Assembly (NCBI RefSeq): GCF_006345805.1
Contig: NC_043011.1
Coordinates: 13,342,464-13,406,463, forward strand
DNA length: 64,000 nt
Reading direction: 5' to 3'
Source of the DNA: Octopus sinensis
Lineage: Eukaryota
The notes beneath the pieces are model-generated. The model searched no databases. It saw only the letters and a list, made by a program, of their open reading frames with translations, and was not told the origin of the DNA. Shown in pieces: positions 1,798 to 59,999 of this stretch (position 1 is its first letter; the number at the start of each line of letters is the position of its first letter). A program made the translations under genes and the position numbers.

Positions 1798-2023
1798 TAT
1801 TAGAATTTCTATATACTTCAATACATGTAAAACTTCAAGTATTTTTTTCTTCTGTTGACTTTTTCTGCTTTTTTTCTTCTTAGGTTGTCAGTTATTTTTT
1901 TTACAGTTCTGTCAAAAGAATATTGTTTTATTTCAGACTTATGCATCCTTTATCTTTATCTTTATTTATTTTTCTTTGATGGGCTTCACCATCCTATTCC
2001 TGTTGCATGTTATTTCATTGCAG

Positions 2024-2116
2024 CATTACATGGTATTCCCCAAACCCAGGCGGTGGCAAAACCAGCTGTGGCAGCAGTGGCTCAAGTCAGGAGACTGTCT
2101 ACCACTATTCTAATGG
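2024..2116 (+). CDS. ACO1: Candidate ACO1 cassette exon encoding an IRP2-like insertion (ITWYSPNPGGGKTSCGSSGSSQETVYHYSNG)
   Basis: Acceptor TTTCATTGCAG, donor GG|GTAAGA. 93 nt, open in phase 2-2, matching the phase-2 start of exon 10460. GC-richer than its flanks. PNPGGG matches the start of the vertebrate IRP2 insert. Confidence 0.75.
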
Positions 2117-3056
2117 GTAAGACAGTTGGTTCCATAATAGTACCTGTCCAACATAAACATCTTACAGTCTTGCTGCTAGTAATAGTTTGTGCTGTTGTGT
2201 TAGTAACATTGTTAAATCTAGACTTTTGTAGGTTTTTCAATATGGATCTAGAGTTATGTTGTCACGTATTCAAAGTATTTAAACCTATTATTTTATTTTG
2301 TTGCAAATGGCTACAAGTTAAGCAGAGAGTTAATCTAGATGTAAAAGTGTTCTTGGAATAAACCACACACAATGAAACTGTAACTGTTCGTTATCTATGG
2401 CAAGAATGCATGTACCTCTGAGATCAGTGAAGAAGCTCTTTGACTATTGAATACTGAAATCTTGGACTAGATTCAAGTCTGAAATTCTTGATAAAATAGC
2501 ATCATATAAACATTGGGTATTTTTGTTCTTAATTTGTACATTATAACGATAATAAAGTTATAAATTATTGATATTGTTTAATTACATTGATTAGAAGGTT
2601 AAAAAATAACCTTTGCAGTAATATTTTGCTGTTGTTGAGCCTATGAGGGAACCTCTTTACAGCTGGTTTACTTGCTAGAAATAACAGCCAAATTTTCCCT
2701 CAAATCACACCTATTGTTTTAAACAGGAAGGGCACATTGAATAATGTAGTCCTCAGTAACCCTTATAGACAGGATGGTCACAGCTGGAATGCCATTAGTC
2801 GTAGGTCTGCTCAATCAAAGTTGACCTCATGTTTTGTTACACACTGACTTAATATATGCGTTTTTAATTAGTAGTCTTCAAAAATGTTTTTAATTCATTC
2901 CTTTTAATATGTCTTTCTCTACTACTATTTGCTGATATTGTTGCTGCAAGATTTTTGTGCCAAACCTCTCTCCCTCACATAAAATTTTCATATATGATAC
3001 TGTATTTTCATATAAGCTGCTTAGCTGAAACATATTACATTGCGTGTAGAAGAGAT

Positions 3057-10459: not shown

Positions 10460-10529
10460 TTCAGATGCTCTCCAACAAAATGAAATTCGTGAATTTGAAA
10501 GGAATGAAGAAAGATTTCGATTCTTGAAG
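10460..10529 (+). CDS. ACO1: Cytosolic aconitase/IRP1 exon (SDALQQNEIREFERNEERFRFLK)
   Basis: TTTTAG| ... AAG|GTATAC, 70 nt; matches the aconitase A motif EFERNxERFxFLKW. Confidence 0.95.
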
Positions 10530-14002: not shown

Positions 14003-14357
14003 TTGTGTCTTTTTCAGGTTTGCTTGTGGATACAGATGGAATTTGTATGTGATCTAAACCGTATCCACTCCCAATCAGTGTACCATGATATTCATGTCTG
14101 TCAAATGTATTTAAGATCCAGAAATGATCTGTTACTACTCTGCTCTAGACGCAAAATATTTTTATTTTCTTAGTTGCAGGCAGTAAAATAAGATATTGGT
14201 TGAGGACTAACATTATTTTAATTACTAACTACAGAAGACCACCCTTGATACAGTTTTAAAGACTCAAACAAATTCAATTTGTCTATATCTAATTTTTGTT
14301 TGTTTTAAATATTTAAACATTTTTTTCTACCCAACTTTTGAAACTTTTTATTTACAG

Positions 14358-14541
14358 TGGGGCTCAATAGCTTTGAAGAACATGCAGATTATACCCCCAG
14401 GTTCTGGAATTGTACATCAAGTGAATTTAGAATATCTCGCAAGGGTTGTTTTTAGCAGTAATGGTATGCTGTATCCTGATTCCGTAGTTGGGACTGATTC
14501 TCATACCACTATGGTGAACGGCCTTGGTGTAGTAGGCTGGG
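14358..14541 (+). CDS. ACO1: ACO1 exon ([32 protein letters not shown]...[23 protein letters not shown])
   Basis: TTTACAG| ... G|GTAAG, 184 nt; substrate-binding GIVHQVNLE and DSHT motifs. Confidence 0.98.
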
Positions 14542-14738
14542 GTAAGTTTATAACTAAAATTTTATAATTGTTACGCAGTATATTATATGATCTTTGTTGT
14601 TCTTATTCTTTGGATGGTGTTTGATTTTTTTTTCTTTTGTTCAAATGTTTTCTTTTTGCTTTCTTTTTGATCCCTTGCCATAATATTTGTAACAATCTCA
14701 GTTGGTTTGTTGGGAAAAAGTTGACTGACTATTATCTC

Positions 14739-15147
14739 AGATCTTTTCGGTTTCAACGGCAGTTTTTTCTAGCGGTGTCATGAAATTGTCACCCATAATT
14801 ATGACCCTAGAATCGATCTATTGCATTTCAATCTGTTTTAGGGTTAGGGGTGGGGGAAGGGTATCTTTTTTTTCTTCACAAATGTAAATAAACCCAATCT
14901 GTTTCTTAAACGAGGGACATATTCATACGGCACAGAATGCTTTTTAACTCAATAGATGTCACTGATTGGTTGAAATTGCAGAAAGTGAAGAAAAAAAATA
15001 GCAAATATCTTACAAACTATAGAATTTTCTCAATAAAGCCAAGAGAAAAAGATGTTTTATAAACACATTCTACCAGTATACGAAGTTTAAAAGTGTTTAG
15101 TTACCTAGAAATTATGTTAAAAACTGCCGTTCAAACCGAAAATATCC
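14739..15147 (+). mobile_element. Merlin-like non-autonomous DNA transposon
   Basis: Same family as 8518; TTATCTC flanks both ends. Confidence 0.8.
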
Positions 15148-15679
15148 TTATCTCTTCTCTCCAAAGCTGTATCCAGTACCAGTTAGTATTACATCAACTA
15201 CTGGAGGTGTTTCATACAGGTCATACAGATAGCCTTGGGATATTTCTGAGAGTCCATCACACATTCAGTTACATCTACTGGTGGATTGAAGAGCAGAAGT
15301 ATCTGAATTCACTCTTGAATGACTTCCCACAACTGCAAAGGATGTCATGAAATTCTTAGTGTGTTCATTACTTGTGCTGGCTTTTACTTCAGTCGGCAGA
15401 AATTCTCTTGACTATTCTTGACCGCAAATCTATTTCACCTTTGACCTCTCTATAGCAGAAAAGTAGGTGACTGATGCAACCCTCATAGATATGTTGTTTT
15501 ATATCCCCAACCCTGCCAAATTATTCACTCTCAGTTCTACAGAACAACACTGCCTCCAACACTTGGAAACAGTTATAAACCATCCACTAACTAAGAGTTC
15601 TACACATCATTTTGATGCTTACAAAATAACCATAAAGGAAAGTAAAAATTGTCCGATGGCATCACTTTGTCTACAACAA

Positions 15680-16060
15680 TTCAGTGCAACACCAGTGCAG
15701 AATCACCTCCCTCCAACAAGTCATCCTAACAAGACGTCTGTGTTGGCTGGGTCATGCCCTCCATTGTCAGCCAGGAGAATTCATCTATGAAGCAATTGCC
15801 CCAGCTCCCCTTCAGGGTTGGCGAAAGCGATGTGGTGGACAACGAAAAACCTGGCTGATGACAGTCAAGGCTGATCTGGAACCCAACCTAGGCCCCCATA
15901 TCTACAGCGTTCGTTGCTAGAATAAAGAGTGGTTGTAGATCACACGGTCGTTAGCCTCAAATTGCCAGGTCTGGTCGGCGTTTGTGAGAGATGCAGCATT
16001 GAGGATGAATGAAGCCAGCTCAGCCCACCCAGGGTGAATGCTGTAAGAAGAAGAAGAAAG
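15680..16060 (+). mobile_element. RTE-clade LINE 3' end (second family)
   Basis: RRLCWLGHA...GGQRKTWLMTVKADL C-terminal motif with an (AAG)n tail; paralogous copy at 50790-51064. Confidence 0.75.
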
Positions 16061-17432
16061 TAAAAATTGCTCTTAAATCACATGACCTTCAAAACTTTCT
16101 GAGGAATCAATCTTTAAAAGTATCATTTCTATTGATAAAGCCTCTACATTTGCTGTCCATTTTGCTTCCAATTCTACATTGCTTACACATAAAATCTCTC
16201 TTGAAATCCCTTCACCAAACTCAGCTGTTTTATCATGTTCACTTAGACTCCAAGTTAGGAAGCTTTACTGGTCAACAAGGCAACTAGTCGCGACTATGTG
16301 TATTAGTTTGGTGAAAATAACAGCTAGCTCGGCATTTCCCTCTCTACAAACATCTATACTAAACTCTGTAAACATACAACAGTATATGTTACTTTGCTTT
16401 CAACGTTTGAATGGTGGTGGAATCATAAACTGTTACATCATCATTTTTTTTTCTCTTTTGTCGTTGACTGTCACTACAGTTTCCACACAACCATATTTAG
16501 AAAAGTTCTTTCCTACATCATCCTCAAGTCTTTTTTTTTTTAATAACTAACCTAAAAGTATTGTTATTGCTCTTGATATCAGCATGTCTTGTATGAAAAC
16601 CTCCTGGCTAAGTTATTCCCCATCTCTTGAGTCAAAAGTTTACTGTCAGACTATCATAACATTTGTATCAACCTATCTGGGCAGTGTGATCAGTTGTTAA
16701 TGAAGGTTAGAAAGTGATGTGAACAGTAAACTTGGTAAAGCAGGAATTGTATTCCACTGCATGTGCTGCATTTGGACAACAATAAGCATCACTACTGTCA
16801 TGAAAATTCAATAACATACTGCAGGAGTTCTTCCAACGGTTCTATATGTCAGTTAAGGTGGCCATGGTGCTTGATGGTGAACATTTTCAGAGTCATTTAC
16901 TGAAGAAATTCTTACTTATTAGAAATTTTTCTGCAAAGTAAATTTCAGTAAATTGCAAAACATTGTGGTGCTGCAACAGTTGTACCTGACAGGTGACATT
17001 TGGTGCAGCAGATTGTGTCTGTCTCTCAGTGCCAAAGACCTAAGCTTAAGTGTACATCATAGCTGAAATAATTGTTTTTATTTTGTGTGTGTGTGCAGAT
17101 GAGGGGTTAAGTGATGAAATTAACTCCATTACTTGACTGGTAGAAACTTGGTTAAACCGGGAGAGGTGGAAAATAAAGTTGACCTTGGTGGAATCAACCT
17201 GATACTCGACTGGTACTTTATTTTATTGGCTCCAGGTGGTATGTAAAGCACAGGTAAGCTTGGTGGGATTTAAACACAAAACTTAAAGAGCCATAATAAG
17301 TACTGCAAGGCATTTTGTTTAACATTCTAATAATTCTACCAATCCATAATAATTGCATTTCGAAATATTAGAGTAAAATATAAATTAATTCTGCCAAAAT
17401 ATAATTTCATCATAAACTGAAATATAATAGTC

Positions 17433-17834
17433 TCTCTTTTCTCTTTTACTTGTTTCAGTCATTTGACTGCGGCCATGCTGGAGCACCGCCTTTTTTTTTT
17501 AGTCGAGCAAATTGACCCCAGGACTTATTCTTTGTGAGCCTAGTACTTATACTATTGGTCTCTTTTGCTGAACCGCTAAGTTACGGCGACGTAAACACAC
17601 CAGCATCGGTTGTCAAGCGATGTTGGGGGGACAAACACAGACACACATATATGCATACATGTACATATATACGACTGGCTTCTCTCAGTTTCCGTCTACC
17701 AAATCCACTCACAAGGCTTTGGTCGGCCCGAGGTTATAGTAGAAGACACTTGCCCAAGGTGCCACACAGTGGGACTGAACCCAGAACCATGTGGTTGGTA
17801 AACATGCTACATACCACACAGCCACTCCTGCGCC
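17433..17834 (-). mobile_element. SINE family A, full length
   Basis: Reverse complement of the consensus. Confidence 0.9.
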
Positions 17835-18342
17835 TATAATAGCATCACTTTTCATAATCCTCTCTACTTCGTCAGTCATTGAATGGCCATAACCTTGTTA
17901 TTCTCTTTTACAATGTCTTAAAAACCGCTTTAAATCCTCTAAATTTAATATCTTCTTCTGTATCACATTCTCCTTAGAATAGATCCCATTTGTTTTATCT
18001 GATTTCTTTGCAGATGTGGAAACTCTCCAATTCCTATTATTCAGCTTTTAATGGTATATCGGTTTACCTCAAGTACTAAAAGAACTGTTTGTTGGGCCAT
18101 GCTTGTCCATACATCCAGCTATTGTGCTATAAACGGCTGCACTCACTAAGTTTACTGAGCAATTTCCTGGAATTCACAATTTCAGTTCATTGAGATTTCA
18201 GCCTGTAGTGCTTGTGGAATTCAAACACTTAAAAGTGTCAGAGCACAATTAGCTTGTTAAGGCTACTGCTGTATTGCTTTAAGTAGTGTAGAATTTATAC
18301 TTCACATTTGTAGTGTTTATCAGCACACACATAGACACATAA

Positions 18343-18466
18343 TATACAAGAATGTGGTTGACGGTGGCTTCAAACTTTCAGCCAGGTAAACCATCATCGG
18401 GCTGCAATTTGACAATGGCTTAGCTGGCTGAAACTTTGAAGTCACTATCAACAACATTCTTGTATA
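18343..18466. repeat. ~124-nt imperfect fold-back hairpin
   Basis: TATACAAGAATGTGGTTGACGGTGGCTTCAAA..TTTCAGCCAG pairs with CTGGCTGAAA..TTTGAAGTCACTATCAACAACATTCTTGTATA. Confidence 0.85.
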
Positions 18467-19263
18467 CTCTTACTCTTTTACTCTTTTACTTGTTTCAGTC
18501 ATTTGACTGCGGCCATGCTGGAGCACCGCCTTTAGTCGACCAAATCGACCCCAGGACTTATTCTTTGTAAGCCCAGTACTTATTCTATCGGTCTCTTTTG
18601 CCGAACCGCTAAGTGACGGGGATGTAAACACACCAGCATCGGTTGTCAAGCAATGCTAGGGGGACAAACACACAAACACATACACACACATACATATATA
18701 TCTCTCTCTATATAAACGGCAGTTTGTCTGTGTGTGTTTCTGTGTGTCTGTTTGGTTGTACCCTCACCCTGACCACGGCTTTCAACCGATTCTGATGAAA
18801 CTTGACACACACATAGCCCAATGTCATAATTCAAAACTAACGCAGCGAAAAATTTGAAAAGTTCCCCCAGTTCTGAAAAAAAATCGATAAATTCGACATG
18901 GGGTCGAGAATCAGAAACACAAACCACAGACTGTCTAGGGGACGCAACTCGACCTTTTTAACTCTCAAAAAAAAATTTACCATAGTTTTTTTTCCATTTT
19001 TTTTCTATTTTTTGGCTATAACTCTCTAAAAATGCTTTATAGTTATTTCCCTTACAAACCTGAGCAACGCCAGGCGATACTGCTAGTATATACATATATA
19101 TACGACAGGCTTCTTTCAGTTTCCATCTATCAAATCCACTCACAAGGCATTGGTCGGCCCGGGGCTATAGCAGAAGACACTTGCCCAAGATGCCACGCAG
19201 TGGGACTGAACCCGGAACCATGTGGTTGGTTAGCAAGCTACTTACCACACAGCCACTCCTGCG
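18466..19263 (-). mobile_element. SINE family A interrupted by a Helitron
   Basis: SINE halves at 18466-18700 and 19087-19263. Confidence 0.85.
18701..19086 (+). mobile_element. Non-autonomous Helitron
   Basis: A|TC...CTAG|T, no TSD, subterminal GAGCAACGCCAGGCG hairpin; inserted in the SINE microsatellite. Confidence 0.85.
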
Positions 19264-19306
19264 TGTATGAATAATAAATTTGTATCTACAAAATTATAGA
19301 GTGTAT

Positions 19307-21720
19307 TCATCATCATCATCATCATCATCATCATCGTTTAACGTCCGCTTTCCGCGCTAGCACGGGTTGGACGGTTCGACCGGGTCTGGGAAGCCAGGGG
19401 CCGCTCCAGGCTCCAGTCTGAATCTGGCAGAGTTTCTACGGCTGGATGCCCTTCCTAACGCCAACCACTCCGTGAGTGGATTGGGTGCTTTTTACGTGCC
19501 ACCTGCACAGGGGCCGGAGGGTCCGGCATCGTCACGATCGGTTCGAGCATTTTAACGTGTCAGCGGCACGGGGGCAACGAGGTCCGGGGTACTTTGGGGA
19601 TCCAGGGTACTTTGGGGATCCGGGGTACTTAGAATGGGTAGGGGGTATGTGGAATTGCTGCAGAAAGCAGCCCGGGTCTTTGTAGTCACAGCATATCTCC
19701 AGAGATCTCGGTCCTTCGCCATTGCCTCAGTGAGGCCCAATGCTCTGAGGTCATGCTTGACCACCTCATCCCATGTCTTCCTGGGTCTACCTCTCCCCCT
19801 GATACCTTCAACTGTTTGGGAGTGGCACTTCTTCACACATCTCTCTTCATCCATCCGCAGCACATGACCATACCATCGCAAGCGTCGCTCTTGCATACCA
19901 CATCTGATGCTTCTTATATCCAGCATTTCTCTCAGGATACTTACACTCTGTTTTGCGTGCACACTGACACTACACATCCAGCGGATCATGCTAGCTTCCT
20001 TTCTTTCAAGTCTACGCATGTCTTCTGCAGTCACAGCCCATGTTTCATTACCGTGAAGCATGGCAGTTCGCACACATGTATCATACAATCTACCTTTTTC
20101 TCTGAGGGAGAGACCTTTTGTTGCCAGTAGGGATAGGAGCTTTCTGAACTTTGCCCAGGCTATTCGTATTCTAGTGGTGATACTCTCTGTGCATCCACCT
20201 CCGCTACTAACTTGGTCACCCAGGTAGCGGAAACTATCAACGACTTCTAGTTTCTCTCCCTGGAGTGTGATGGAATCTGTTTTCTGAGTGTCTGTTGTGT
20301 CTATTGTCCCTGTGCATCTGCCGCACATGAAAGCTATCTTATCTGTTAATTTCCCTTTAATGTTGCTGCACCTCTTATGTGTCCATAACTTACATTGGGT
20401 GCATCTTATGGAGTTTCTACCTGTACCTTTCCTACAGGTTGAGCAGGGCCACCTACCCGAGGGGATGTGTGCTGAGTACCTCTTGCTGCTTACTAATACT
20501 TTGGTCTTTGCTACATTTATTCTAAGGCCCTTTGATTCCAACCCTTGCTTCCACACCCGAAATTTCTCTTCTAGTTCCGGTAGTGATTCTGCTATGAGAG
20601 CTAGGTCATCAGCATAGAGGAGCTCCCAGGGGCATCCCGTTTTGAATTCCTCTGTTATTGCCTGAAGGTCTATGATGAATAAAAGGGGACTGAGGGCTGA
20701 GCCCTGGTGCACACCTACTTCTACCCGGAATTCTTCACTATATTCGTTGCCAATCCTAACCTTGCTGACAGCCTCTCTGTATAGAGCCTGTACAGCCCTT
20801 ATTAGCCTTTCTTCAATCTCCAGTTTCCGCATCGACCACCAGATAAGGGAACGGGGAACCCTGTCAAAGGCTTTCTCCAAGTCTACAAAAGCTATGTAGA
20901 GGGGTTTATCTTTAGCTAGGTACTTCTCCTGCAGTTGTCGGACCAGGAATATAGCATCAGTGGTGCTTCTACCTGGTACAAAACCGAACTGCATTTCATC
21001 TAAACAAATTCTCTCCCTAATGAGATTGGTTATGACCTTCTCTGAGACCTTCATCACCTGGTCCAACAGTTTGATACCTCTGTAGTTATTTCTATCTAGA
21101 GCATCACCCTTACCCTTGTAGCAGTTGACTATGGTGCTGCTGCACCAGTCATTGGGTATGACTCCATTGTGAACTACCTGGTTTACAATGCGGGTGACTA
21201 TGGCATAGCCCACATAGCCAGCTGTTTTAAGCATCTCAGCAGTGATTCCTGATAGGCCAGGGGCTTTGCCTGGTTTCATATCCTTAATTGCCTTATCTAC
21301 AAGGGAGCTGTCTATTCGGGTAGCTGGTCCCTCTACTGGGTCAACATTTGGCAGGCTCTCCTCCCATTCATTCTCCTCCTTCAGCAGTCTTTCATAATGG
21401 CTTCTCCAAGCCTCTTTCTTTTCACTAGTAGTAAAAGCAAGTGCCCCATCATCCATGCGGACACATTTCTCTCCTATAACATCGCTATTTTCTCTGACAC
21501 ACTGTCTGGCAATCCGAAATACTTCAGCTCTTTGATCCTCGCGACGCTGGACATTGGCAAACTTCTTCTTTTCTGCTACATCTTTGGCAATGTATACCTG
21601 CCGCCCAGCCTCCCTTTTGGCTATCTGGTACAGTTCCCTGCTGCCCCCATCCTTCCAGGCTTTCCAGGCCCGTCTCTTTTCACAGATGGCTTTATCTACT
21701 GCACTATTCCACCACCACGA
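19307..21720 (-). mobile_element. 5'-truncated RTE-clade LINE; intact ~720-codon ORF2 segment (RT + PHD-like finger), 3' UTR and (GAT)n tail
   Basis: RT motifs NYRGIKLL, QFGF, DLEKAFD, GVHQGSALSP, YADD, FRYLG, RRLRWYGH, RGRPRKTW; no endonuclease domain. Confidence 0.95.
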
Positions 21721-21820
21721 TATATATATATATAATAATGATATTAGGGAGTATAACTCCAAACTTACAGGGAAAAATCAGATTTAGTATTAAATCAAAT
21801 TTCACAGTATAAATATATAA

Positions 21821-22197
21821 AATATGAATTAGAGATAAAACCACTATTATGCAACTCAAACAGTGATAGACATAAACCAATACATAAATAACAAATAATA
21901 TAAATATAATTAATATAGTATATAATATATATATATATAATTTTTTTTTCCAAAAAGTATAAAAAGAATGATAAATATAATATAATATAATAAGTAATAA
22001 TATATTAAGTAAAATAATAAGTAAAAACACATTATACTTATATTATATTTATCATTCTTTTTATACTTTTTGGGAAAAAAATTATATGTATATTATATAT
22101 TATATTAATTATATTTATATTATTTGTTATTTATGTATTGGTTTATGTCTATCACTGTTTGAGTTGTCTAATAGTGGTTTTATCTCTAATTCATATT
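21821..22197. repeat. AT-rich fold-back with ~165-bp arms at the LINE 5' junction
   Basis: AATATGAATTAGAGATAAAACCACTATTA..CAACTCAAACAGTGATAGACATAAACCAATAC... is mirrored at about 22035-22197. Confidence 0.9.
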
Positions 22198-22726
22198 ATA
22201 TATATATATATATATGCTGCTGTTTGACATCAACTGAAACTAGAGTATAGTACAAACAGTCAAGTTTTTTGTACATAATTTCGCCATACATAAGTTTTCA
22301 TCCAAGGCATTCCAACCATAATTCTTCCATCTTTTTATTAACATATTCTTACTAGAAATCCATTATCCAGTGTTTTGTTTTAAAAATTTTTTTTACCTTT
22401 TTAGTATGATGAGTTATGACACGAAAGGGATTTGGCTGCTATTTCTAACAGCTGAAGTGATTATGTTGAGGCTTTGTCTTATTGATTAGTGTTTGAAATT
22501 CAAGACAATCTAGGTCAACTTTTGTATTGTAACTTAAATGATAAATATGTTTAACTCCTTTGGATACCCTACAAGGAATTAGTTTCTTATCTTAAAATAA
22601 AAATCACTTGTTTTACATCTTAAAATCAAGATTCTTGCTTTATGATAACTTTATGATTCCATTTTAGTTCCTTTTTTTTTTCTTTGCTTTCAGTTGCATC
22701 AGTTAGTCTTCTTTCCTATTGTAGTA

Positions 22727-23087
22727 CTGTTTTTAGTCATTTGACTGCAGCCATGCTGGAGCACTGCCTTCGTCAAAGAAACTGACCCCAGGACTTATTG
22801 TTTGTAAACTTAGTATTTATTCTATCAGTCGCTTTTGCTAGACTGCTAAGTTACAGAGACATAAACACACCGACATCAGATGACAAGAGATGGAGGGGTG
22901 TAAACAGACACACACACACACATATATTTGTGTGTGGGCTTCTTTCAGTTTCTGTCTACCAAACCCATTCACAAGGCTTTGGTTGGCTCTCAGCTATAGT
23001 AAATGACACTTAAACAAGATGCCATGCAGTGGCACTGAACCTGGAACAATGTGGTTGGCAAGCAAGCATCTTACCACACAGCCACAC
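22727..23087 (-). mobile_element. SINE family A, diverged
   Basis: Reverse-complement consensus with substitutions. Confidence 0.8.
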
Positions 23088-23556
23088 TTTAGAATAGAAA
23101 GTTTGATTTATTATTGCAGGTGCAAATAGCAATGATAATACCTTTTAGAAAGTATTAAAATGAGTTAGTACATAGTAAATGATATTTAACGAGTAATTCA
23201 ACTGACTCATGGAAAATTGGTGAATGTTGACTCTAATGTCATTATTAGAAGAGGACACAATAAAAGAGTTTCCTGTTGCCTTCTCCAGACTTACTGAAGT
23301 ACTTGAGTTTAGTATAGCAAGTAGTGAACTGTAATTCCACATAGTACTAAAAGTGGGAGGATTAGTTCATTCATAAATAAGAATCTTTACAAGGGGTTAC
23401 AGGATATAGTGCTGCCAATGATGGAAGCTTCAACCTTATAACAGGCAAGATTAGAGTCTTATGAACTCCGCTGACTAACACTTGTTTTGTATCAATTATT
23501 TATAAAAGCAATTAAGTTGTCTAATTTTCTCTAGAGTCAAATATGATTTATTTTAG

Positions 23557-23696
23557 GTGTCGGTGGCATTGAAGCAGAGGCTGTCATGCTTGGTCAATCA
23601 ATTAGTATGGTGCTTCCGAAAGTTGTTGGTTACAAATTGATTGGTGAACTTGATCAATACACAACATCCACTGACGTGGTCCTTACAATTACTAAG
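23557..23696 (+). CDS. ACO1: ACO1 exon ([46 protein letters not shown])
   Basis: TTTTAG| ... AAG|GTAAT, 140 nt, phase 1-0. Confidence 0.98.
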
Positions 23697-23859
23697 GTAA
23701 TTCATACATTTCTATTTCTATATATTTTTATTACTTGTTTTTCTAAAAAAAAAAAAAGTCGTTTGTATTGAGTCTGGCTGGCCTGAATAAATACAAATAA
23801 CTTTTGATAGTTTATATAATATATATATATATAATATATATATATAATATAATATATAA

Positions 23860-24330
23860 TGAAATTATTGCATACAGTGCTCAGGTGCACCACAACCTGT
23901 CAAAAAGCGCATATTAAGTATAAGAAGTAATGTACAAATGTCTGGAGAGCGAACAATGTATGAATCAGATACATGCTTGCGTGTGTATGGAGGGGAGAAA
24001 ATCAGGTGTTGTGTTGGCGAATCTCAGAAAGCATGGAAGTTTTGAAGGATGCAGTGCTCCGACAACTAACAACTGATGCCGGCAGTTTGTTCCATACTTC
24101 AGCAACTCTTAGCGTGAAAAAATGTTTCCAAAAGTCATGGGAGCTGTGCTGTTTTCTGACTTTGTTAACATGTCCATGGGTGTTAGACAGATGGAGTTTG
24201 AAAAGGTGCTCAGAGTTATTGTTTGTAAGATGGTTGATAATTTTATGGGTGTCTGCCAAGTCAGCTGCCAGACATTGGAGTTTCAATGTATCCATGCCCA
24301 GGGAAGTAAGGCGTTCAGAATATGGCAAAT
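23860..24330 (-). mobile_element. CR1/L2-type LINE 3' end
   Basis: YSERLTSLGMDTL...DL..THKII...FFTLRVAEVWNKLP, a typical CR1/L2 ORF2 C-terminus. Confidence 0.8.
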
Positions 24331-24723
24331 GCCTGATGGTTTGTATACTTGAAGGTTACTCATTATCATTGTCGTCATTTAACAGCCCACTCTTCATACT
24401 GACATAGGTTGGATGTTTTGACAGGGAACCAGAAGCTGCAAGGCTGCATCATACTCCAGTGTCATCTTTGACTTGGTTTCTCTGGTTTGATGCCCTTCCT
24501 AATGCCAGCCACTTTGCAGAGTGGACTGGGTGCACTTTTTGTGCCACAAGCATTAGTGAGGTGGCTGTGTAACTTATAAGACGGAATAGAACAAGAGGGG
24601 AAAAAAAGAAGAAGGAAAAAATTCCCACTACTAAGGGGAAGTATTTGTGAAGGAAAGTGTAATAGAGAGACATGCTATAGAGAAGATACATGGCTAAAGG
24701 AGATAAAAGGAAGGTAGTGATGG

Positions 24724-24950
24724 GGTGCGAGCTAGCAGAAACGTTAGCATGTTGGGCGAAATGCTTAGCAGTATTTCGTCTGCCACTAGGTTCTGAGTTC
24801 AAATTCCGCTGAGGTTGACTTTGCCTTTCATCCTTTCGGGGTCGATTAAATAAGTACCAGTTATGCACTGGGGTTGATATAATCGACTTGATCCGTTTGT
24901 TTGTCCGTTTGTCTCCTCTGTGTTTAGCCCCTTGTGGGTAGTAAAGAAAT
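24724..24950 (+). mobile_element. SINE family B
   Basis: Consensus match; 16-bp TSD GGTAGTGATGGGGTGC. Confidence 0.85.
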
Positions 24951-25874
24951 CGGTAGTGATGGGGTGCTAGAGCAAACACTTAAGTGAGCATAAGAGAGGA
25001 CACAGACAGTGTGTCACAGAAGGTGATGAGCGTGGATGCTTTCATTAGAGTGGAGTAAGGTAATAAGCTGGTTGAAACAAAGGTTAATGTAGAGGAATGA
25101 TGGACTAAGATGGGGGGTGCAGATGATGAGAGAGGAAATTTGATGTTGAAGGTAACAACATTACTTTCACTAAATTTCTCTGAGAAGGTTTTACAAAAGC
25201 TCTGCTACTGGTTAAGGTGAACGATTCCTGGTTGCTGTTAATGGCTGTCTCTGTTACCATTAAGATCAGGAAATATCTCTATTGAGATAAACCCTGATTG
25301 AGAGATAAGAATTGGGTGAGTTGAAGGTCAAACTCCGAAGTGCAGTATTTAGGGATAATGACAGTATTAGAGCTAATGGCCTTGTTTGCCCACAGAACTG
25401 TCATTGTTGAGGGATGTCAGGAAAGAGAATTTTATCAAGTTGATGAAATTTTTTTTTTTTCTTGGCAAGGGACTAAAAGTTTTAGCTGCAGTTTGGGATA
25501 AGGAAAAGCTTGAGGTTTCTCCTGTATCTATTTTCAATGATGCTGTAACTAGCCTTGCTTTTACCTTTATTTGAAAATTATTGTGATGCCTGTCAAAAAT
25601 GAAGTTTATTTCTTCCTTGTCTTTGCCATTTTCTTCTTGTATTTCATTTTATCTTTTTTCACTTATTTTTACCTCCATTCACTCTTTTTATTCTCACTGA
25701 CCTATTCATATACTTCATTTCTTTTCTCTCTCTCTCTCATATGGATATTTTCTTTCCCACCTCTCTCAGCAACATCATAGAACAAAACCAACAACAACAA
25801 CAAAAAAACTCCGGTGTGTGATTTAAAGTTTTCTATATTTCTATATCAAGATGTTCTCTTTTTGTTCTGTCTAG

Positions 25875-26046
25875 CATCTACGAAGTGTTGGTGTTGTTGG
25901 TAAATTTGTTGAGTTCTACGGCCCAGGAGTTGCCCAACTTTCTATTGCTGATCGATCAACGATATCCAATATGTGTCCTGAATACGGAGCTACTGTTGGT
26001 TATTTTCCAATTGATCAAATGAGTATGGATTATCTTCAACAAACCA
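25875..26046 (+). CDS. ACO1: ACO1 exon ([47 protein letters not shown]...QQT)
   Basis: TCTAG| ... A|GTAAG, 172 nt. Confidence 0.98.
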
Positions 26047-26950
26047 GTAAGACATTTGACATTTAATCAGATGTGTGTGTGTATGTATGTGCAAGTTTAC
26101 TTTCTTCCATCTGTCCATTGCTAATTTTTGTATTTACTTTGGGTTCTTATTTCATCTTTTTTTTTTTTTTTGCATTAACATCTTTTCTTTGTGCTTGTGT
26201 CAGTGTCTAAGAGTTACTGACACAAGAGTAACAATCCAAACAAGACTTGTTGGATTTTCCTTTGGACATGGCATGAAAAATCACCAATGTCTCAAAGGAG
26301 TGAGTGTTGTGGAGTTTAGTTACATCCAACAAACACTGAAGTTTTTCCCAAAATCCAGGGTTTTTATAACTGCTCAACTTGACTTTAAAGAATCGAAATT
26401 ACATACAAATATTCTTTAAGTAACTCTTAGAATTCTTATATGAGCAGTTATATTAACCAATGGAAAAACGACAATAATATTTCTTCAGCAATACGACATT
26501 ACGTCATATTGTCAGCTACCACAAATTGGCGCCTTATTTTAAAATGGCTACTTGCTACATGTCTATTAGACATTTATTAAAGTAAAAATTTTAATGACTG
26601 TATACTGATTTTCTTTTTGATAAATTCTAAAGGATATGTCACTTTATAAAACTTATCTCTTGCAGTATTGTGCTACTTTACATAAATCTAAGATTTGCTG
26701 TTTTATGCAATTATCTTCAGTCTAAACTTTATGCAGTCAAGGTTGAATAATTTTCACAAAGCATTTCTTATCGTAATGAGAAATATTTACCATCTATAAG
26801 TGATTGGTGGTTTGGAACATAATTCTTCAAATCAAAGTTTTGAGGATCAGTTTTCGCTCACATCTGATTCATATACATCATACACTTTTCTGAAACAAGC
26901 ATTTTAATGACATTTGGTTAAGTAAATTTCAGTTATGTCTAAAAATAACA

Positions 26951-27340
26951 GTGGCTGTGTGGTAAGTAGCTTGCTTATGAACCACATGTTTCCGAGTTCA
27001 GTCCCACTGCGTGGCACCTTGGGTAAGTGTCTTCTACTATAGCCTCGGGCCGACCAAAGCCTTGTGAGTGGATTTGGCAGACGGAAACTGAAAGAAGCCC
27101 ATCGTATATATATATATATATATATATGTGCGTGTCTGTGTTTGTCCCCCCAACATCGCTTAACAACCAATGCTGGTGTGTTTACGTCCCCGTAACTTAG
27201 CGGTTCAGCAAAAAAAAAGACCGATAAAATAAGTACTAGGCTTACAAAGAATAAGTCCTGGGGTCGATTTGATCGGCTAAAGGCGGTGCTCCAGCATAGC
27301 CACAGTCACATGACTGAAACAAGTAAAAGAGTAAAAGAGT
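26951..27340 (+). mobile_element. SINE family A, full length
   Basis: Consensus match. Confidence 0.9.
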
Positions 27341-27567
27341 TCGATAATTGAGGCTTAGATATCAGAATATGAGTGTTGTTACTTCGTATTCTAGGTTTAT
27401 ATGAAAATAGGAAAATGGTTGTTGTCGGTCATTATTAGACATGAAAAAACTTTACTTTGAATCTAAACGAGATTCAGTTTGTTATGTTGTTACAGTAAAT
27501 TATATATATTTTATGATGTGGTAATTGCTACATTTCACTTTTTCTGCAAAATTTTCTTCCTTTTTAG

Positions 27568-27668
27568 ATCGCAGTGAAGAAAAACTTTCATATATAGAAA
27601 CATTCCTTAAAGCAAACAAAATGTTTAGAGATTATACCAAATCTGAGGAGGATCCTATATATAGTGAT
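27568..27668 (+). CDS. ACO1: ACO1 exon (RSEEKLSYIETFLKANKMFRDYTKSEEDPIYSD)
   Basis: TTTTTAG| ... GAT|GTAAGT, 101 nt. Confidence 0.96.
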
Positions 27669-27879
27669 GTAAGTCGTAGAATTTCTCTTATCTAGAAATT
27701 TATTTAACATCTAAAGGAAAAAATGTTTTTGATTATTGATAAATTCTGATTGATTATAGTCTCCTCTAGTTAGAATATAAGTATATGGTAAGTCAAAAAT
27801 TGTATGCACTCTTATTTCTGTAATTTATTAAATCAAAAGCAGGGGTTGAACAAATGCATAATTTTTTCAACTGTCTCCT

Positions 27880-28830
27880 GCCTTTCTGATGTACTTTTTC
27901 CAGCTGTCTACTAGTTTGCTTATTCCATCAGAGAAGAAGGTTTTGGCTGGTTTCGCAGCCATTTATGTACCACGTCCTGTGTTTTGTCATTCTTAGCAAA
28001 TTGATGACCTCGTAAAGTATGGTTGAGTGGTCCAAAGTGGTGAAGGTCAAAAGGGGTGAGATCTGGACTCTATGCAGGATGTTCTAGCTGCTTGAGACCC
28101 AAGTTTTCAATGGTTTCAACTGGGTGGTGGGCAGCCATATGTGAGAATGCATTGTCATGCAACAATAATACTTGCTTTGACAATAGACCTCAGCATTGGG
28201 TGTCGTTTGCTGGTTTCACTGTAATCTACACTGGTAACTGTAGACCCCTTTTCCAGTAAAATACGTCAGTATAGGCCTATTTGCACCCCCAAAACAGTCA
28301 GCATAACTTTTCCTGTGGAAAGTCAAGTCTTGAATTTCTTTTTGGCAATTCTAGGTGTTTCCACTCCATACTTTACCTTTTGAATTCTAGCTCAATGTGA
28401 TGGGTCCTAGTCTCATCTAGTGTGACTATTCTTTCCAAAACAGCTTCACCTTCATCGTAGTACTGGTTGAGTAAGCATTGTTGTGGTTATGCACTTTGAT
28501 AAGCTCCCTTGGCTCCTATCTCACACAGACTTTACGCAAGTAAAGCTTGTCTAAGATGATTTCATATTCGGAAGCATGACTAATTTGCAGAGAACATGCC
28601 ACCGCATTGATGTTCATTCATTGGTTTGCCAGAACCGCTCCTTGAACTTGTGGTGGAGGTTGATGGGTGTCCTGCTCCCATTTCATGCTTCACATTTCTC
28701 TGGCCATTTTAAAACTTGTTACTCCACTCATACACACTTTTATGCAGTATAGCGCTGTCCTTATATTGCCTGCAATAAATTTCGAACCTGGGCACACATC
28801 CAAGCCAGAGAAATCAGATCACTAATCTCT
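27880..28830 (-). mobile_element. Degraded mariner transposase relic
   Basis: Minus strand encodes HDNA and HPA*SPDLTPFDLHHFG, a decayed form of the mariner 'HPPYSPDLAPSDF.LF' motif. Confidence 0.65.
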
Positions 28831-28883
28831 GTTCTTCCTTGGTGCACACTGGCAGTGGAGTGGCCATGTTTATTCTGTAACAA

Positions 28884-29090
28884 TCATCATCATCATCGTT
28901 TAACGTCCACTTTCCATGCTAGCATGGGTTGGACGGTTCAACTGGGGTCTGGGGAGCCAGGAGGCTGCACCAGGCCCAGTCTGATCTGGCAGTGTTTCTA
29001 CAGCTGGATGCCCTTCCTAATGCCAACCACTCCGAGAGTGTAGTGGGTGCTTTTTATGTGCCACCGGCACAGGTGCCAGACAAGGCTGGC
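28884..29090 (-). mobile_element. Family C RTE tail
   Basis: Consensus match. Confidence 0.85.
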
Positions 29091-29581
29091 AATAGAGAGA
29101 AAGACGTTTACAGCACCTAGGTTTCCCAAGCGAAATAAAGAATTAAAAAAAAAAAACTGGAACAATAAAGGCCAAACCTTGGTTACATACCCACAAGAGT
29201 GCCACCTTTTAATATGCAAGTACTGAAGGCAGTGCAGCCAACCTAAACAAAGTTTTGCCAAAAGTACAGTTAACCTTTGACTGCCCCTTGTATCTATACA
29301 ACCAGATTGTGTTTCAAAGGTAGTCTGTTCCTTATAATGTAACACTATCTCTTATTACAATTGTAAAGGCAATATCTGGTTCCAATTTAGCTGGCTTGGG
29401 ATTTGGCTTGTACCATCCTGTACAAGCTTCAGCTTTTCTTTATTTATTTATTACTTTACTTATCAGCCAGTTCCCCTTTTTATAATCTTATTACTCATTA
29501 CTAGTAGAACACATTCATCTGTGTTTTTCTCCATTTTAAGAAATGTTTCAAAGATATTTGACTCCAAGAAAAGAACTTTCA

Positions 29582-29947
29582 TCTCTATATATATAAACGG
29601 CAAAATGTCTGTGTGCATGTCCTTTATACAAATCCACAATTTTTCAGTTAGAGAGCTCGCACTTTCTATGGTCATTCAAAACCGTTCAACGGTGGTCGTG
29701 CACATCTTTACATTTCCCCAGTCACCTCGTAAAGCTATTAAAAAGTCAATAGAAGTGACATTTTTGTGAATTTTCTATCCAAAACCCAATCAAAATGCCC
29801 GAAACTTGATACGCCAATTGAATGCCAGCTAGCTGTATGTGGTTGGTCGGAAATTTGGACAGTACTCGTGTGTGTATGTGCACATGCATGCAGCTGTATA
29901 TGCATGCACTAGCACTATGACCCGGCGTTGCCAGGTCATAGTGCTAG
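29582..29947 (+). mobile_element. Non-autonomous Helitron (second family)
   Basis: A|TCTCTATATATATAAACGG...GTGCTAG|T with a terminal palindrome; paralogue at 39460-39804. Confidence 0.85.
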
Positions 29948-30411
29948 TATTATCTAAATGAATTGTAAAGGCAAATGGCTAGTACTTGAAGTACAACATG
30001 TAGTAAAGTGCATGCATGCATATTTCGTACAGTAAGCCTCGAGGTTAACTAAAAGTATAGGACTTCTTCATAACAAAAAAAGACAAAAAGATAGGGGAGA
30101 CCACTCTGATATTTTAATTAAATTCAGTGGAATATAGAATGCAGTGGAGAGTGCACATGATTTTTTGTGGTACAGTAAATGGCTTTTGTCATATTTTTAT
30201 TAGTCATTATCAGCAAAACCTAGTCTAACCATAACTGCAAGATCTTAGAATGATTATCTTGTCTAGATTACATTATGGTGCTTACATAATATTGAGTTCA
30301 AAATTATAGTTTGATAAACATTTGTTGTTACAAAATTAATTTCACATATGTGTATGGGAAAATGTATGTTAGTGATTTTTTTTTTTTGTTTTTATTATTT
30401 TACTTAAACAG

Positions 30412-30540
30412 TATTATGAATTGGATTTGAGCACAGTAAGTTCGTGCTGTTCAGGACCCAAGCGTCCTCATGACAAGGTATTAGTGACAAATATGAAAGA
30501 AGATTTCAAGAACTGTTTGACATCACCAGCTGGTTTCAAG
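30412..30540 (+). CDS. ACO1: ACO1 exon ([23 protein letters not shown]...CLTSPAGFK)
   Basis: AAACAG| ... AAG|GTAAA, 129 nt; SGPKRP motif. Confidence 0.97.
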
Positions 30541-30619
30541 GTAAATCTCATATAAAATTACTTCATACATAAGACTGTTTCTATTTTAACCTTTCATTAT
30601 TTACTTATATGTAAATAGC

Positions 30620-31078
30620 GTGCTAGCGGGGTGCAGTGAGTACCATACGAGTGTGATCATTGACAGAGCGGCTAACTGGCTTCCGTGCCAGTCATAGTTA
30701 AAAGGCACCATTCGAGCATGATCGTTACCAGCGTCGCATTACTGGCACTCGAGCCCCATGTTAGTAGGGTATTAAGAGCACCATCCGAGCATGACCGTTG
30801 CCAGAGCGGCTATCAGGCCCCTGTGCCGGTGGCACGTAAAAAGCACCATTCGAGCGTGATCATTACTAGCATTACCTTACTGGCATCCGTGCCAATGGCA
30901 TGTGTAAAAGATTCGAGCGAGGTCGTTGCCAGTGCCGCCTGACTGGCACGTAAAAGCACCCACTACACTCTCGGAGTGGTTGGCGTTAGGAAGGGCATCC
31001 AGCTGTAGAAACTCTGCTAGATCAAGATTGAAGTCTGGTGCAGCCATTTGGTTTGCCAGCCCTCAGTCATACGTCCAA
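30620..31078 (+). mobile_element. Family C RTE 3' UTR with tandem subrepeats
   Basis: Consensus match. Confidence 0.8.
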
Positions 31079-31404
31079 AATAGCCTATTTGTAAACCACA
31101 TAAGAATTTTGTTGTAGATATTCATTGCTCTCCCTCTTTCTCCTCTCTCTCTCTCTCTCTCCATATATGAGAGAGAGAGAGAGAAAGAGATACACCTATA
31201 CACACATTTTTATCTATGTATCTTTATGCCTATGTGTATGCCTTTCCTTGGTGAAGAAAGAATCCAAATTAATAAATAAATGCTTACAATCTTAAACTTT
31301 ACATGTTTACAATGTTGAATCTCATGATGTAAAACATAAACATTGAGGCACAGCAAGATGCTACCAAAGTTTTGAACAAATCCATTGTCATTTGTACATA
31401 AAAG

Positions 31405-31870
31405 GGATCTTTTCGGTTTGAACGGCAGTTTTCAACACAATTTCTAGTTAACTAAACACTTTTAAACTTCGTATACTGGTAGAATGTGTTAAAATAAAAC
31501 ATTTTTTCTCTTAGCTTTCTTGAGAAAATTGTAATTTGTAAGTTTAATTTTTCGAATTTTAACCAATCGATCGCCTCTATTTAGCTAAAATCATTTGCTG
31601 TGTCTAAAACTGAGACAACATCCTGTCACTGTTATGTTTACGTTCGGAAAGCGTGTGTATAAAATTATAGAATTATTTTGTTTGTTAATTGTTTAAATTA
31701 TTTTCCATTGCTTTCGTTTTAGCCTTTCGTTTTTTTGTTTTTCTTAAGCAATGGAAAATAGTTTAAACAATACACTTGTATCTCAAAACAAAAACAAAAC
31801 GAATAATTTTAGACACGCGTAACAATTAAATTAATTTAACAATTAAGAAAAAAAAAACGAAAGGCTAAAT
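31405..31870. mobile_element. One-ended Merlin-like element followed by rearranged inverted repeats
   Basis: GGATCTTTTCGGTTTGAACGGCAG TIR with no partner TIR; internal inverted segments. Confidence 0.65.
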
Positions 31871-31904
31871 GAAGTTAATGAGTTCTTTCATTTCTGTTCT
31901 GCAG

Positions 31905-32052
31905 GGTTTCCAGATTCCTCCTGATAAATTAGATATAACCATTCCATTTGAGTTTGAAAGTAAAGAAGAAATTTTAAGTCATGGTTCTGTTGTTATGGCA
32001 GCCATAACTAGTTGTACTAACACCAGCAACCCTTCTGTTATGCTAGGAGCAG
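31905..32052 (+). CDS. ACO1: ACO1 exon (GFQIPPDK...[24 protein letters not shown]), first Fe-S cysteine
   Basis: CTGCAG| ... G|GTTAG, 148 nt; [11 protein letters not shown] motif (C437 equivalent). Confidence 0.98.
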
Positions 32053-32263
32053 GTTAGTTTGAAATTTTAATTATATTTGTGTTTTAAGAAATAATTTAAT
32101 TTTTAGCCCTTCATGATGTTAAAATTAATGGTTACTTTACAACTCATTATTTGGTAAATTATTTTGTTTCTTCTCTACATTTTAAATTGATATTATTATT
32201 ATTATTTTTATGTAAAATTTACTGAATGAAACTTTTTTCTTTATCTCTTTTTTTTTTTTAAAG

Positions 32264-32399
32264 GTTTATTGGCTAAAAAGGCAGTGGATGCTGGTTTAAA
32301 AGTACTTCCTTACATCAAAACCAGCTTATCCCCTGGCAGTGGTGTAGTTACCTATTACCTCAAAGAAAGTGGTGTTATACCTTATCTAGAAGAATTAGG
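32264..32399 (+). CDS. ACO1: ACO1 exon ([45 protein letters not shown])
   Basis: TTTAAAG| ... GG|GTAAG, 136 nt. Confidence 0.98.
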
Positions 32400-32535
32400 G
32401 TAAGCTTTATGAACATAAAGAGACTATTTCCAATCTACATTAATTTTCCTCAAATAAAAATTCATCCAGACATAAAAATAGTAACAATGGGAGTATTATT
32501 ATGTTTAAGATATTGTCTTTGTGTTTCATATTCAG

Positions 32536-32620
32536 ATTTAATATTGTTGGCTATGGTTGTATGACTTGTATTGGAAACAGTGGCCCATTGTCTGATGAAG
32601 TATCTACAGCTATTGAAAAG
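32536..32620 (+). CDS. ACO1: ACO1 exon ([28 protein letters not shown]), Fe-S cysteines 2 and 3
   Basis: TTCAG| ... AAG|GTTTG, 85 nt; GYGCxTCIGN motif. Confidence 0.98.
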
Positions 32621-32821
32621 GTTTGTCCTCTTTCCCACTTACTTGTAACTGAGGTTTCTAAGCTTTTGCCTTTCTCCTTTCTAACAAATTTGTCCAGTGT
32701 CAGTTAGGAAATTGTTGTTTTATTCTTAAATGTCATAAAAATGAAAGAAAACATAACTAAAAATATGTTTTGTGAATGTAAAATTATTTCAGTGTTCAAA
32801 ATGTATTGTCTTATTTCACAG

Positions 32822-32978
32822 GGTGATTTGGTGGCTGTCGGTGTGCTATCTGGAAACAGAAACTATGAGGGACGTGTTCACCCACTTACTCGAGCCAACT
32901 TCTTAGCTTCGCCTCTCTTAGTGATTGCCTATGCTTTAGCTGGAACTATCTGCATAGACTTTGAAACAGAACCATTAG
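32822..32978 (+). CDS. ACO1: ACO1 exon ([52 protein letters not shown])
   Basis: TCACAG| ... G|GTAAT, 157 nt. Confidence 0.98.
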
Positions 32979-33188
32979 GTAATTGGAGTTTTCACTTCAT
33001 ATACTTGCTACATTTAAGCCTAAGCTGCTATTTTTATTCATTTAGTTTATTGGTAAACTTACTTAAAAGGTGAATTCAGCATGAATATTTTAGAAATTAT
33101 TGATTTTGAAAGATGGAATTAGTGGTTGCAATAACTTTGTTGAACTGGTGTTTTACTAAGACATAGTTACCTAATGAAATTTATCAAG

Positions 33189-33325
33189 TAACTTATAGAC
33201 TCAGCATACTGGTACTGTTGAGAATTTTTATCATCATCATCATCATCATCGTTTAGCGTCCGTGATGATGATGATGATGATGATAAAAATTCTCAACAGT
33301 ACCAGTATGCTGAGTCTATAAGTTA
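33189..33325. repeat. Perfect palindrome, 62-bp arms, 13-nt spacer
   Basis: 33189-33250 is the exact reverse complement of 33264-33325. Confidence 0.95.
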
Positions 33326-33574
33326 TTTATATTTATTGTAATGCATATTGTATTTGGTGAACCCTGGAGGGTTGAAATGCTAAGTTGATTTGTAGAATTA
33401 TGATGTTTCATTTGTATTGTGAACTTATTTCACAATGTTTGTGAATCAGTTTTATAATAGAATACTAATTTATTTTTGGACTCAGTATTTCAAGTATTTT
33501 CATAACTACTTTACATACTAAAGAATTAAACTATATTTCTAAATGAAGTTTATCTTCTGTAAAATAATTCATAG

Positions 33575-33639
33575 GTTATAATGCTGATGGAAAACCAATA
33601 TACCTCAAAGACATATGGCCTACCCGAAATGAAATCCAG
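33575..33639 (+). CDS. ACO1: ACO1 exon (YNADGKPIYLKDIWPTRNEIQ)
   Basis: CATAG| ... CAG|GTGAT, 65 nt. Confidence 0.96.
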
Positions 33640-34299
33640 GTGATTAAAACCTTTTTTTGTTATTTTATTGATGTAATAGTACCCAACATAGAAGTTGTTT
33701 TATAAAGTAATAACAATTAGTTTTGTTCTGCATCGTTTAATGAAACACACAACAATATACTATGCTGCAAAATACATATCTAATCCAAAAATATTTTATA
33801 GACTTCATTAGATTCTAAAAATGCTCTACTGTTACTCTCCTGCTAATCGTTTATGTAATTATGGCTTCAAATTTTGGTACAAGTCCAGTAATTTTAGGGA
33901 AGGGACTAAGTTGATTACATCAACTGGTACTTAACTTTACTGACCCCAGAAGGATGAAAGACAAGGTCAGTTTTGGTGAAATTTGAACTCAGATTATAAG
34001 GATGGACAAAATGCTGCCAAGCATTTTTCCTGGCGAGCTAACAGTTCTGCCAGCTCACCACCTTAGTGGTTATGTAATTATGAAGTTTACTTCACAATCA
34101 TATGGTTTGGGGTTCTATTCCACTGCATGCTACCTTGTGTGTGTCCTTTATTATAGCTTTGAACTTATCATTAAATTTAATTTACAGTGTCTGGTAAATG
34201 AAATTTAATATGTAAGACTGCTTTTATCTCTGTGTTTTCTCATTGACACTGTTTCAGCAAGTGATGTGTTTTGTGTCTCCTTTAAGCTACACATCCTTG

Positions 34300-34533
34300 A
34301 TGGCGTCTGTGTCGGTGACACGTAAAAGCACCAACCGATCGTGGCCATTTGCCAACCTACCCTGGCACATAAAAATCATCCACTACACTCTCAGAGTGGT
34401 TGGCGTTAGGAAGGGCATCCAGCTGTAGAAACATTGCCAAACCAGACTAGAGCCTGGTGCAGCTTCCCAGACCCCGGTCGAACCATCCAACCCATGCTAG
34501 CATGGAAAACGGACGTTAAATGATGATGATGAT
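34300..34533 (+). mobile_element. Family C RTE tail
   Basis: Consensus match ending in (GAT)n. Confidence 0.85.
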
Positions 34534-35315
34534 CCTGTAGCTCAGCAGTTTATGCTGGTCTCATGTAAAGATGAGTGCAGCAGAAATATCTTATTTGAAA
34601 ATCAAATAAGGATTGATTGCCAGAAGCGCATCTGGCTGTAGAATGGTGCTTCGACCCATACCAGCATAGAAAAAGCAGATGTAAAAAACCACAGTAGTGC
34701 CATTTCTCTAATGGTAGTTGTGAATTGGTTCATTGTATCAAAGTCATTAAGATATTTGGAATTTTAATATTATTTAATTGATAGTTAAGGTGTAATAATT
34801 AAGCATCTCAGTTTAATACATATAAAAAAGTCACTCTGGTACAGATTGTATTAATGATCCCTCCACCCTTTTTAATTTCTTTCTTCACTTTTAAATCAGT
34901 ACCAGGGTAATCTATAAAAGTCGCTTTCTTTTTATAGGCGTTTCAATTTACTTTAGGTAAACTTTCATTATTTTTTAGTGTTCTATTTTTGCCAGTTTTA
35001 TCAAGATATGCCCAACTGTTTTTATTTCACATCTCATTATTTGAAATTTAGGGTATGTATGGATTGCTTCAGTTATAAAAAAGAATTGTAAAATTTTAGA
35101 AATTGACTGATTTTTAGTTGAGCATTTTCTTGAGCATTTGAAATTGATATAAATAGATAATGCAAGTTTGTAGTTATGATGTTGGAAACTGGTTACTAAC
35201 GATAAATGAGACTTTGAAAATTGGTGAGAATCTAATGAAATTTTTACATCTTTGAATTCAAAACACTTTACCTTTGTTCTAAGAATTTTAATCTTGAAAT
35301 ATTTTAAACTTTTAG

Positions 35316-35375
35316 GTTGTTGAAAAGAAGAATGTAATTCCAGCTATGTTCAAAGAAGTCTATTCAAAAATAACA
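35316..35375 (+). CDS. ACO1: ACO1 exon (VVEKKNVIPAMFKEVYSKIT)
   Basis: TTTTAG| ... ACA|GTGAG, 60 nt. Confidence 0.95.
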
Positions 35376-43652: not shown

Positions 43653-43719
43653 GTGAGTGACTGTTTTTCTTATATAGATTTAATATTTAATAAATTGGAA
43701 TCGAAATTGAACCAATCCT

Positions 43720-59990: not shown

Positions 59991-59999
59991 AGAGCTATT

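Follow-up and report, generated by a model that had tools for sequence, protein, structure and literature searches.

The cassette exon and its gene

The window, i.e. the whole stretch of 64,000 nucleotides analysed here (G000:C15:13342464-13406463 of the 2.7-Gb Octopus sinensis genome), contains most of a cytosolic aconitase/IRP gene. When the genome was searched with the exon that follows the cassette described below, the four candidates scored were the locus itself, as the one close match, and three matches of 39% that lie on small contigs. The gene has the following features within the window:

2004..2023, + strand: splice acceptor, a T-rich tract followed by CAG; its intron begins at the upstream exon outside the window (G000:C15:13335922)
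2024..2116, + strand: cassette exon of 93 nt, phase 2-2, adding 31 aa to domain 1 of ACO1/IRP1; almost certainly the homologue of the exon for the 73-aa insert of IRP2, without CPFH
2040..2057, + strand: PNPGGG codons, at a distance to the DHS motif equal to that of P143-G148 in human IRP2
2117..2122, + strand: splice donor GTAAGA; TAA follows immediately on read-through
10460..10529, + strand: next exon, encoding (x)SDALQQNEIREFERNEERFRFLK; joins either the cassette or the upstream exon, both in frame
14349..49963, + strand: other coding exons of the ACO1/IRP1 gene, about residues 199-931 of P0011 (edges from tblastn, splice sites approximate); Pfam Aconitase and Aconitase_C

The exon at 2024-2116 encodes ITWYSPNPGGGKTSCGSSGSSQETVYHYSN (frame +3). 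It is preceded by GTTATTTCATTGCAG and followed by GTAAGA, which gives AG and GT borders in phase 2-2. The upstream exon lies 6.5 kb before the window (window-relative position -6541), ends in ...TCCAGAAG followed by GTAAAT and stops after the second base of a codon. Joining the exons in silico yields VDVSR-SITW...YSNG-SDALQQN with the cassette and VDVSR-S-SDALQQN when it is skipped, both in frame. RefSeq lists corresponding isoforms for O. sinensis and O. bimaculoides: X1 and X2 (931 and 928 aa) carry the cassette and X3 (900 aa) does not, the difference between X1 and X3 being exactly the 31 cassette residues. Thus, the sequence, the frame-preserving joins and the RefSeq isoforms confirm the phase 2-2 exon with good splice sites that the preliminary description had proposed, and both the included and the skipped form that it had thought possible for one invertebrate gene are annotated. 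The N-termini of X1 and X2 differ, which implies alternative first coding exons; a candidate about 35 kb upstream on the same contig (G000:C15) has a weak 9-residue match.

Apart from the cassette, the octopus protein is of the IRP1 type. It contains Aconitase and Aconitase_C domains, is nearest to IRP1 and scores higher against human IRP1 than against IRP2 (1433 vs 1211 bits). Its core shares IRP1-type motifs, including ERIHRSNL, at positions where fish IRP2 differs, and the IRP2-type core motifs SCTNNCN and GNSRDW are absent from the protein. The three cluster cysteines and the active-site residues match at 17/17 positions, picked from known motifs; two fish IRP2 pass this test as well, so that it cannot separate IRP1 from IRP2, while the neighbouring motifs can. 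In the tree the octopus protein groups with lophotrochozoan ACO1 (UFBoot 86) and not with IRP2. IRP2 has no aconitase activity and undergoes FBXL5-mediated degradation that depends on iron. In IRP2 the insert is always present, whereas the octopus isoform X3 skips it. In turn, IRP1/ACO1 from human (2b3x) and rabbit (3sn2) lacks the insert, whereas the octopus gene has an insert-bearing form. The insert lies just before the residue that matches human S138, a regulatory site, which is Ala in octopus. For the cassette peptide itself, Pfam gave no match and the protein atlas returned only aconitase-fragment or hypothetical clusters, below 0.9.

The surrounding DNA shows some further features. Tandem units of 64-67 nt within dispersed repeats are found in the introns on both sides of the cassette (3212-3483 and 1513-1632). 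Two open reading frames of 741 and 336 aa (21777-19555, - strand, and 54631-55638, + strand), one of them within an ACO1 intron, resemble LINE reverse transcriptases in their motifs. An open frame at 59966-60190 bridges ACO1 to pyruvate kinase in the O. vulgaris model P0007 (1482 aa). This fusion is probably an annotation artefact; a search of the window plus the following 10 kb gave no pyruvate kinase exon with more than 75% identity.

End motifs shared by the IRP2 insert and its invertebrate counterparts

The octopus cassette and the insert of IRP2 enter domain 1 at the same site. Between the DHS motif and the last residue of PNPGGG (P143-G148) the octopus protein and human IRP2 (6vcd_A) align free of gaps. 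The oyster protein P0020 aligns with human IRP2 at both ends of the insert, and from CPFH (C201-H204 in human) the alignment runs gap-free into the core. The resemblance to human IREB2 that the preliminary description had pointed out held up on alignment, and PNPGGG recurs in relatives. A query made from the octopus region, and thus without CPFH, matched 22 other animal proteins; every one of these carries an insert here, and CP[FM]H is present in 21.

We compared the ends of the insert in a panel of 41 invertebrate genera, 40 of which could be parsed (a millipede, parsed separately, has CPFH). With counts that are biased, because matches were found with motif-bearing queries and clusters were chosen for having the insert, CP[FM]H lies exactly 10 residues before the insert end in 39/40 invertebrate genera, in both cyclostomes and in all five vertebrate IRP2-type proteins. 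At the other end [ND]PGG is present in 34/40 genera and the longer P[ND]PGGG in 29/40, 23 of these at the IRP2 offset. Both motifs occur in 5/5 vertebrate IRP2-type inserts, and the cyclostome inserts have CPFH only (PNPGGG 0/2). Between these ends the insert varies widely: its length ranges about tenfold, from 28 to 296 aa across the genera parsed, and its middle is unalignable across phyla.

A profile built from the inserts of other invertebrates, octopus excluded, gave 23.7 bits for the cassette peptide, and the best of 1000 shuffles reached 10.2. The likeness of the cassette to these inserts exceeds chance. With an invertebrate-only profile, four of the five vertebrate inserts scored above all 1000 shuffles and the fifth was reached by 5/1000; for the hagfish insert 1/1000 shuffles scored as high, and the lamprey match was weak (25/1000). 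One could argue that independent inserts arose in a permissive surface loop and that the similarity to IRP2 reflects convergence of low-complexity Pro/Gly sequence. The unalignable middle, the range of lengths and the low complexity of PNPGGG itself would fit such a scenario. However, two separate motifs stand at fixed distances from the two ends, the site is shared, phase 2 fits all long/short pairs tested, and CPFH was recovered in 21 of the 22 matches to a query that lacks it. We therefore regard convergence as largely refuted and hardly credible. The octopus exon and the 73-aa stretch of IRP2 very probably share a common origin, as judged from site and motifs.

The likeness to vertebrate IRP2 (human 6vcd_A, residues about 137-210) thus comprises the site, the offset of PNPGGG in octopus, the offset of CPFH in its relatives and the use of a separate exon, which a review describes for the IRP2 stretch (PMC3048577). 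In vertebrate IRP2, however, the insert is fixed, whereas in octopus it is annotated as optional, sits on an IRP1-type core and comprises 31 aa with a single retained Cys and no CPFH. Octopus is the sole genus of the 40 without CP[FM]H. The TAA met at once on read-through of the donor leaves no in-frame extension of the exon to such a motif, and neither of the introns flanking the cassette yielded an intermediate exon with CP-x-H in a coding context. A crude pseudo-exon scan missed the true exon and was dropped, its pyrimidine threshold being probably too strict.

The loss of CPFH and of all cysteines but one raises the question of whether the octopus exon is a decaying leftover of an IRP2-type exon, with rare or neutral inclusion and a long form that has no distinct role. 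The sole O. vulgaris model seen is a short form, and the identity of the cassette peptide between O. sinensis and O. bimaculoides (31/31 aa) is little informative because the whole proteins are about 97% identical. Yet frame, phase, both splice sites and the offset of PNPGGG are intact, and long isoforms are annotated in two Octopus species. Decay is therefore an unlikely explanation compared with a retained optional exon.

A probably ancient optional exon

The insert is found at the same site in molluscs, an annelid, arthropods, echinoderms, a hemichordate, Nematostella and cyclostomes. A profile search gave 70 matches among 8000 scored candidates and contributed a chiton, an annelid, crustaceans, a hemichordate, a sea cucumber, rotifers, Nematostella, lamprey, hagfish and fish IRP2; insect, nematode or non-animal names did not occur among these 70 matches, which is weak evidence of absence given the 8000 candidates scored. 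Human and rabbit IRP1 have no insert, and every IRP2 seen has one. The claim of the preliminary description that an IRP2-type insert predates the ACO1/IREB2 duplication is thus upheld, and its distribution over Nematostella, protostomes, ambulacrarians and cyclostomes is wider than was proposed. In decapod crustaceans (P0108, P0114, P0116, P0120, P0171, P0174) the cassette reaches about 280-297 aa, apparently in one exon, and both end motifs are kept.

How often both forms exist was tallied from 21 clusters, using the members listed for the large ones. Among the 55 named species so counted, 35 have both forms, 18 the long form only (three of these being fish IRP2) and two the short form only. 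Taking the cluster members listed together with same-species search matches, both forms are annotated in at least 35 of 52 non-IRP2 species, including three lampreys. Long forms alone were listed for Nematostella, two echinoderms, the hagfish and 11 other non-IRP2 species, and for all three fish IRP2. As Nematostella, the echinoderms and the hagfish are listed with the long form alone, optional status applies to protostomes and lampreys, and the cnidarian ancestor would have shared it.

Several observations bear on whether these pairs reflect splicing. Compared end to end, 15 of 18 long/short pairs differ by the insert alone, two also by substitutions elsewhere, and one turned out to be two long forms. 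A phase 2 junction fits 34/34 tested pairs; nine of them rule out phase 0 and 14 rule out phase 1, and seven (four ticks, three lampreys) are compatible with phase 2 only. Open reading frames that apparently derive from unspliced DNA carry the whole insert as a single block with non-aconitase flanks, even in the case of the approximately 300-aa shrimp insert. The residue after the insert is L, F, C or S in all 15 of these frames that have one, in agreement with a phase 2 GT donor. Eight near-full-length reading frames on contigs of 2.9-4.4 kb, four long and four short, are most simply spliced transcripts.

Alternatively, the long isoforms might be annotation artefacts, or the exon might be constitutive, so that there would be no conserved alternative splicing. 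The isoform pairs are indeed mostly predicted gene models. Against this stand their recurrence in molluscs, chelicerates, crustaceans and lampreys, the way in which their junction residues change, which is that expected of a phase 2 skip, the presence of both forms on short contigs, and Ixodes ricinus, for which the long form is a UniRef entry and the short form a GenBank entry (ACJ70654.1). We consider artefacts or constitutive inclusion very improbable. Annotation and assembled contigs together indicate that splicing of this exon is very probably optional, and conserved as such, in protostomes and lampreys.

The insert occurs with both end motifs in Nematostella and in bilaterians; protostomes and lampreys have it as an option, human and rabbit IRP1 lack it, and every IRP2 seen carries it. 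The simplest reading of this pattern is one ancestral optional exon, most likely older than the cnidarian-bilaterian split and afterwards partitioned between paralogs. The octopus cassette would be the counterpart of the IRP2 insert exon, an exon that was probably optional in early animals, and the paralogs of jawed vertebrates would have split the two forms between them by loss in IRP1 and retention in IRP2. We likewise think it probable that this partition followed the duplication, ACO1 having lost the exon and IREB2 having fixed it. That gene duplicates may divide ancestral splice isoforms between them is a general concept, and the present case resembles it in that the outgroups have one gene with two isoforms and jawed vertebrates two paralogs with one form each. 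It differs in that a lamprey gene still has both forms.

In the trees cyclostomes group with IRP2 (support 100), and vertebrates fall among arthropods with weak to moderate support; as these trees contain no jawed-vertebrate IRP1 and resolve deep branches poorly, they are silent on the order of events and on which paralog the lamprey gene matches. The second tree omitted seven rows, six of them with a long or unstable branch and the other being the second octopus. A preference for IRP1 in phmmer searches with the lamprey, hagfish and Nematostella proteins was rejected as evidence of orthology because IRP2 has the longer branch.

Possible roles of the insert and targets of the octopus protein

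Skipping of the cassette would leave an ordinary aconitase/IRE-binding switch protein. Its inclusion would add a flexible loop 10 residues past the D of the DHS motif, which comprises active-site residues. Since the insert ends lie at fixed distances from the core and the middle is free, the insert may be a disordered linker with a short anchored motif on either side. In most animals this loop ends in CPFH, often as C-x2-C-x11-C-P-F-H, a predicted Cys/His site for heme or metal. CxxC is present in 28 of 47 genus-level inserts and absent from the other 19, and the exact C-x2-C-x11-C-P-F-H occurs in nine of the 47 (molluscs, an annelid, a hemichordate) and in 11 of 16 isolated open reading frames. 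That the CPFH loop binds heme or metal via Cys/His, and so tunes cluster stability, turnover or partners of the long form, is conceivable, at somewhat less than an even chance. C201 of IRP2 has been proposed as a heme-binding residue (PMC2267205), and the insert is reported to be unstructured, with heme bound only by a truncated form (PMC2267205, PMC2854138).

The long form of octopus has PNPGGG and one Cys only; a docking or partner role would remain, ligand sensing would not. Lacking CPFH, an extension past the donor and a second exon, it is not expected to sense heme. The preliminary description had called the included form IRP2-like. An IRP2-like function finds no backing in a protein with IRP1-type motifs throughout and with CPFH and all but one Cys missing, and in IRP2 itself the insert is described as dispensable for iron-dependent degradation (PMC2267205).

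More tentatively, the ancestral animal IRP may have possessed a splice-selectable Cys/His ligand module (C-x2-C-x11-C-P-F-H, providing 3Cys-1His for heme, metal or Fe-S). Jawed vertebrates would then have fixed both forms, hagfish, bdelloid rotifers and another lineage would separately have made insert-bearing copies with altered active sites, and octopus would represent a natural mutant in which the ligand motif is deleted. If the ligand-module reading is true, a single gene produced both a plain aconitase/IRP1 and a form with a sensor long before there were vertebrates.

Two papers present the 73-aa stretch as unique to IRP2 and as having a largely unknown function (PMC2267205, PMC2854138), and these together with a review describe the insert as distinguishing IRP2 (PMC2267205, PMC2854138, PMC3048577). 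Our literature search found no mention of an IRP2-type insert that is optional or belongs to an invertebrate, or of a partition of isoforms between IRP1 and IRP2; it covered few subscription journals, where an earlier remark is possible. The accessible parts of three further papers (PMC4112806, PMC3904948, PMC4693282) contain nothing on invertebrate inserts. RefSeq already contains the isoforms, named simply as aconitases, and what is new is the link to the IRP2 insert, not the sequences. Conservation from Nematostella to humans narrows the 73-aa stretch to PNPGGG and CPFH, both of them short motifs, and indicates selection on them although the insert is dispensable for degradation. It also offers a concrete origin for the IRP1/IRP2 pair. 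Oyster, tick, shrimp, Daphnia and lamprey provide natural test pairs that differ by the insert alone on an aconitase-type core, and octopus provides the version without CPFH.

Some insert-bearing homologues have altered active sites (P0130, P0134, P0135, P0140, P0230, P0234). The hagfish and bdelloid rotifer homologues each miss one of the three cluster cysteines, P0140 and P0230 show other active-site changes, and P0234 ends early. Such proteins may represent separate origins of IRP2-like, non-enzymatic copies.

Candidate targets of the octopus IRP system were found in the same genome. Two ferritin-like first exons (loci L012 and L011) are preceded, at 115 and 303 bases, by hairpins with a CAGTGA loop, on the - strand at about 1500-1530 in each locus; both loci are on contig G000:C22, and the first exons are about 30 kb apart. 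One of the two hairpins folds as a canonical IRE, and one of the exons has a weak Pfam Ferritin match below the cut-off. A search of the octopus genome with Rfam IRE_I was blank, as were its prokaryotic controls, and cmscan of four motif loci gave only sub-cut-off matches to miRNA families and no IRE family, so that the IRE call rests on motif, fold and position. From these we consider the two ferritin-like loci likely targets. The spurious miRNA-family matches drew attention to a long inverted repeat that encloses a TA run at L011 707-909, which is possibly a small mobile element.
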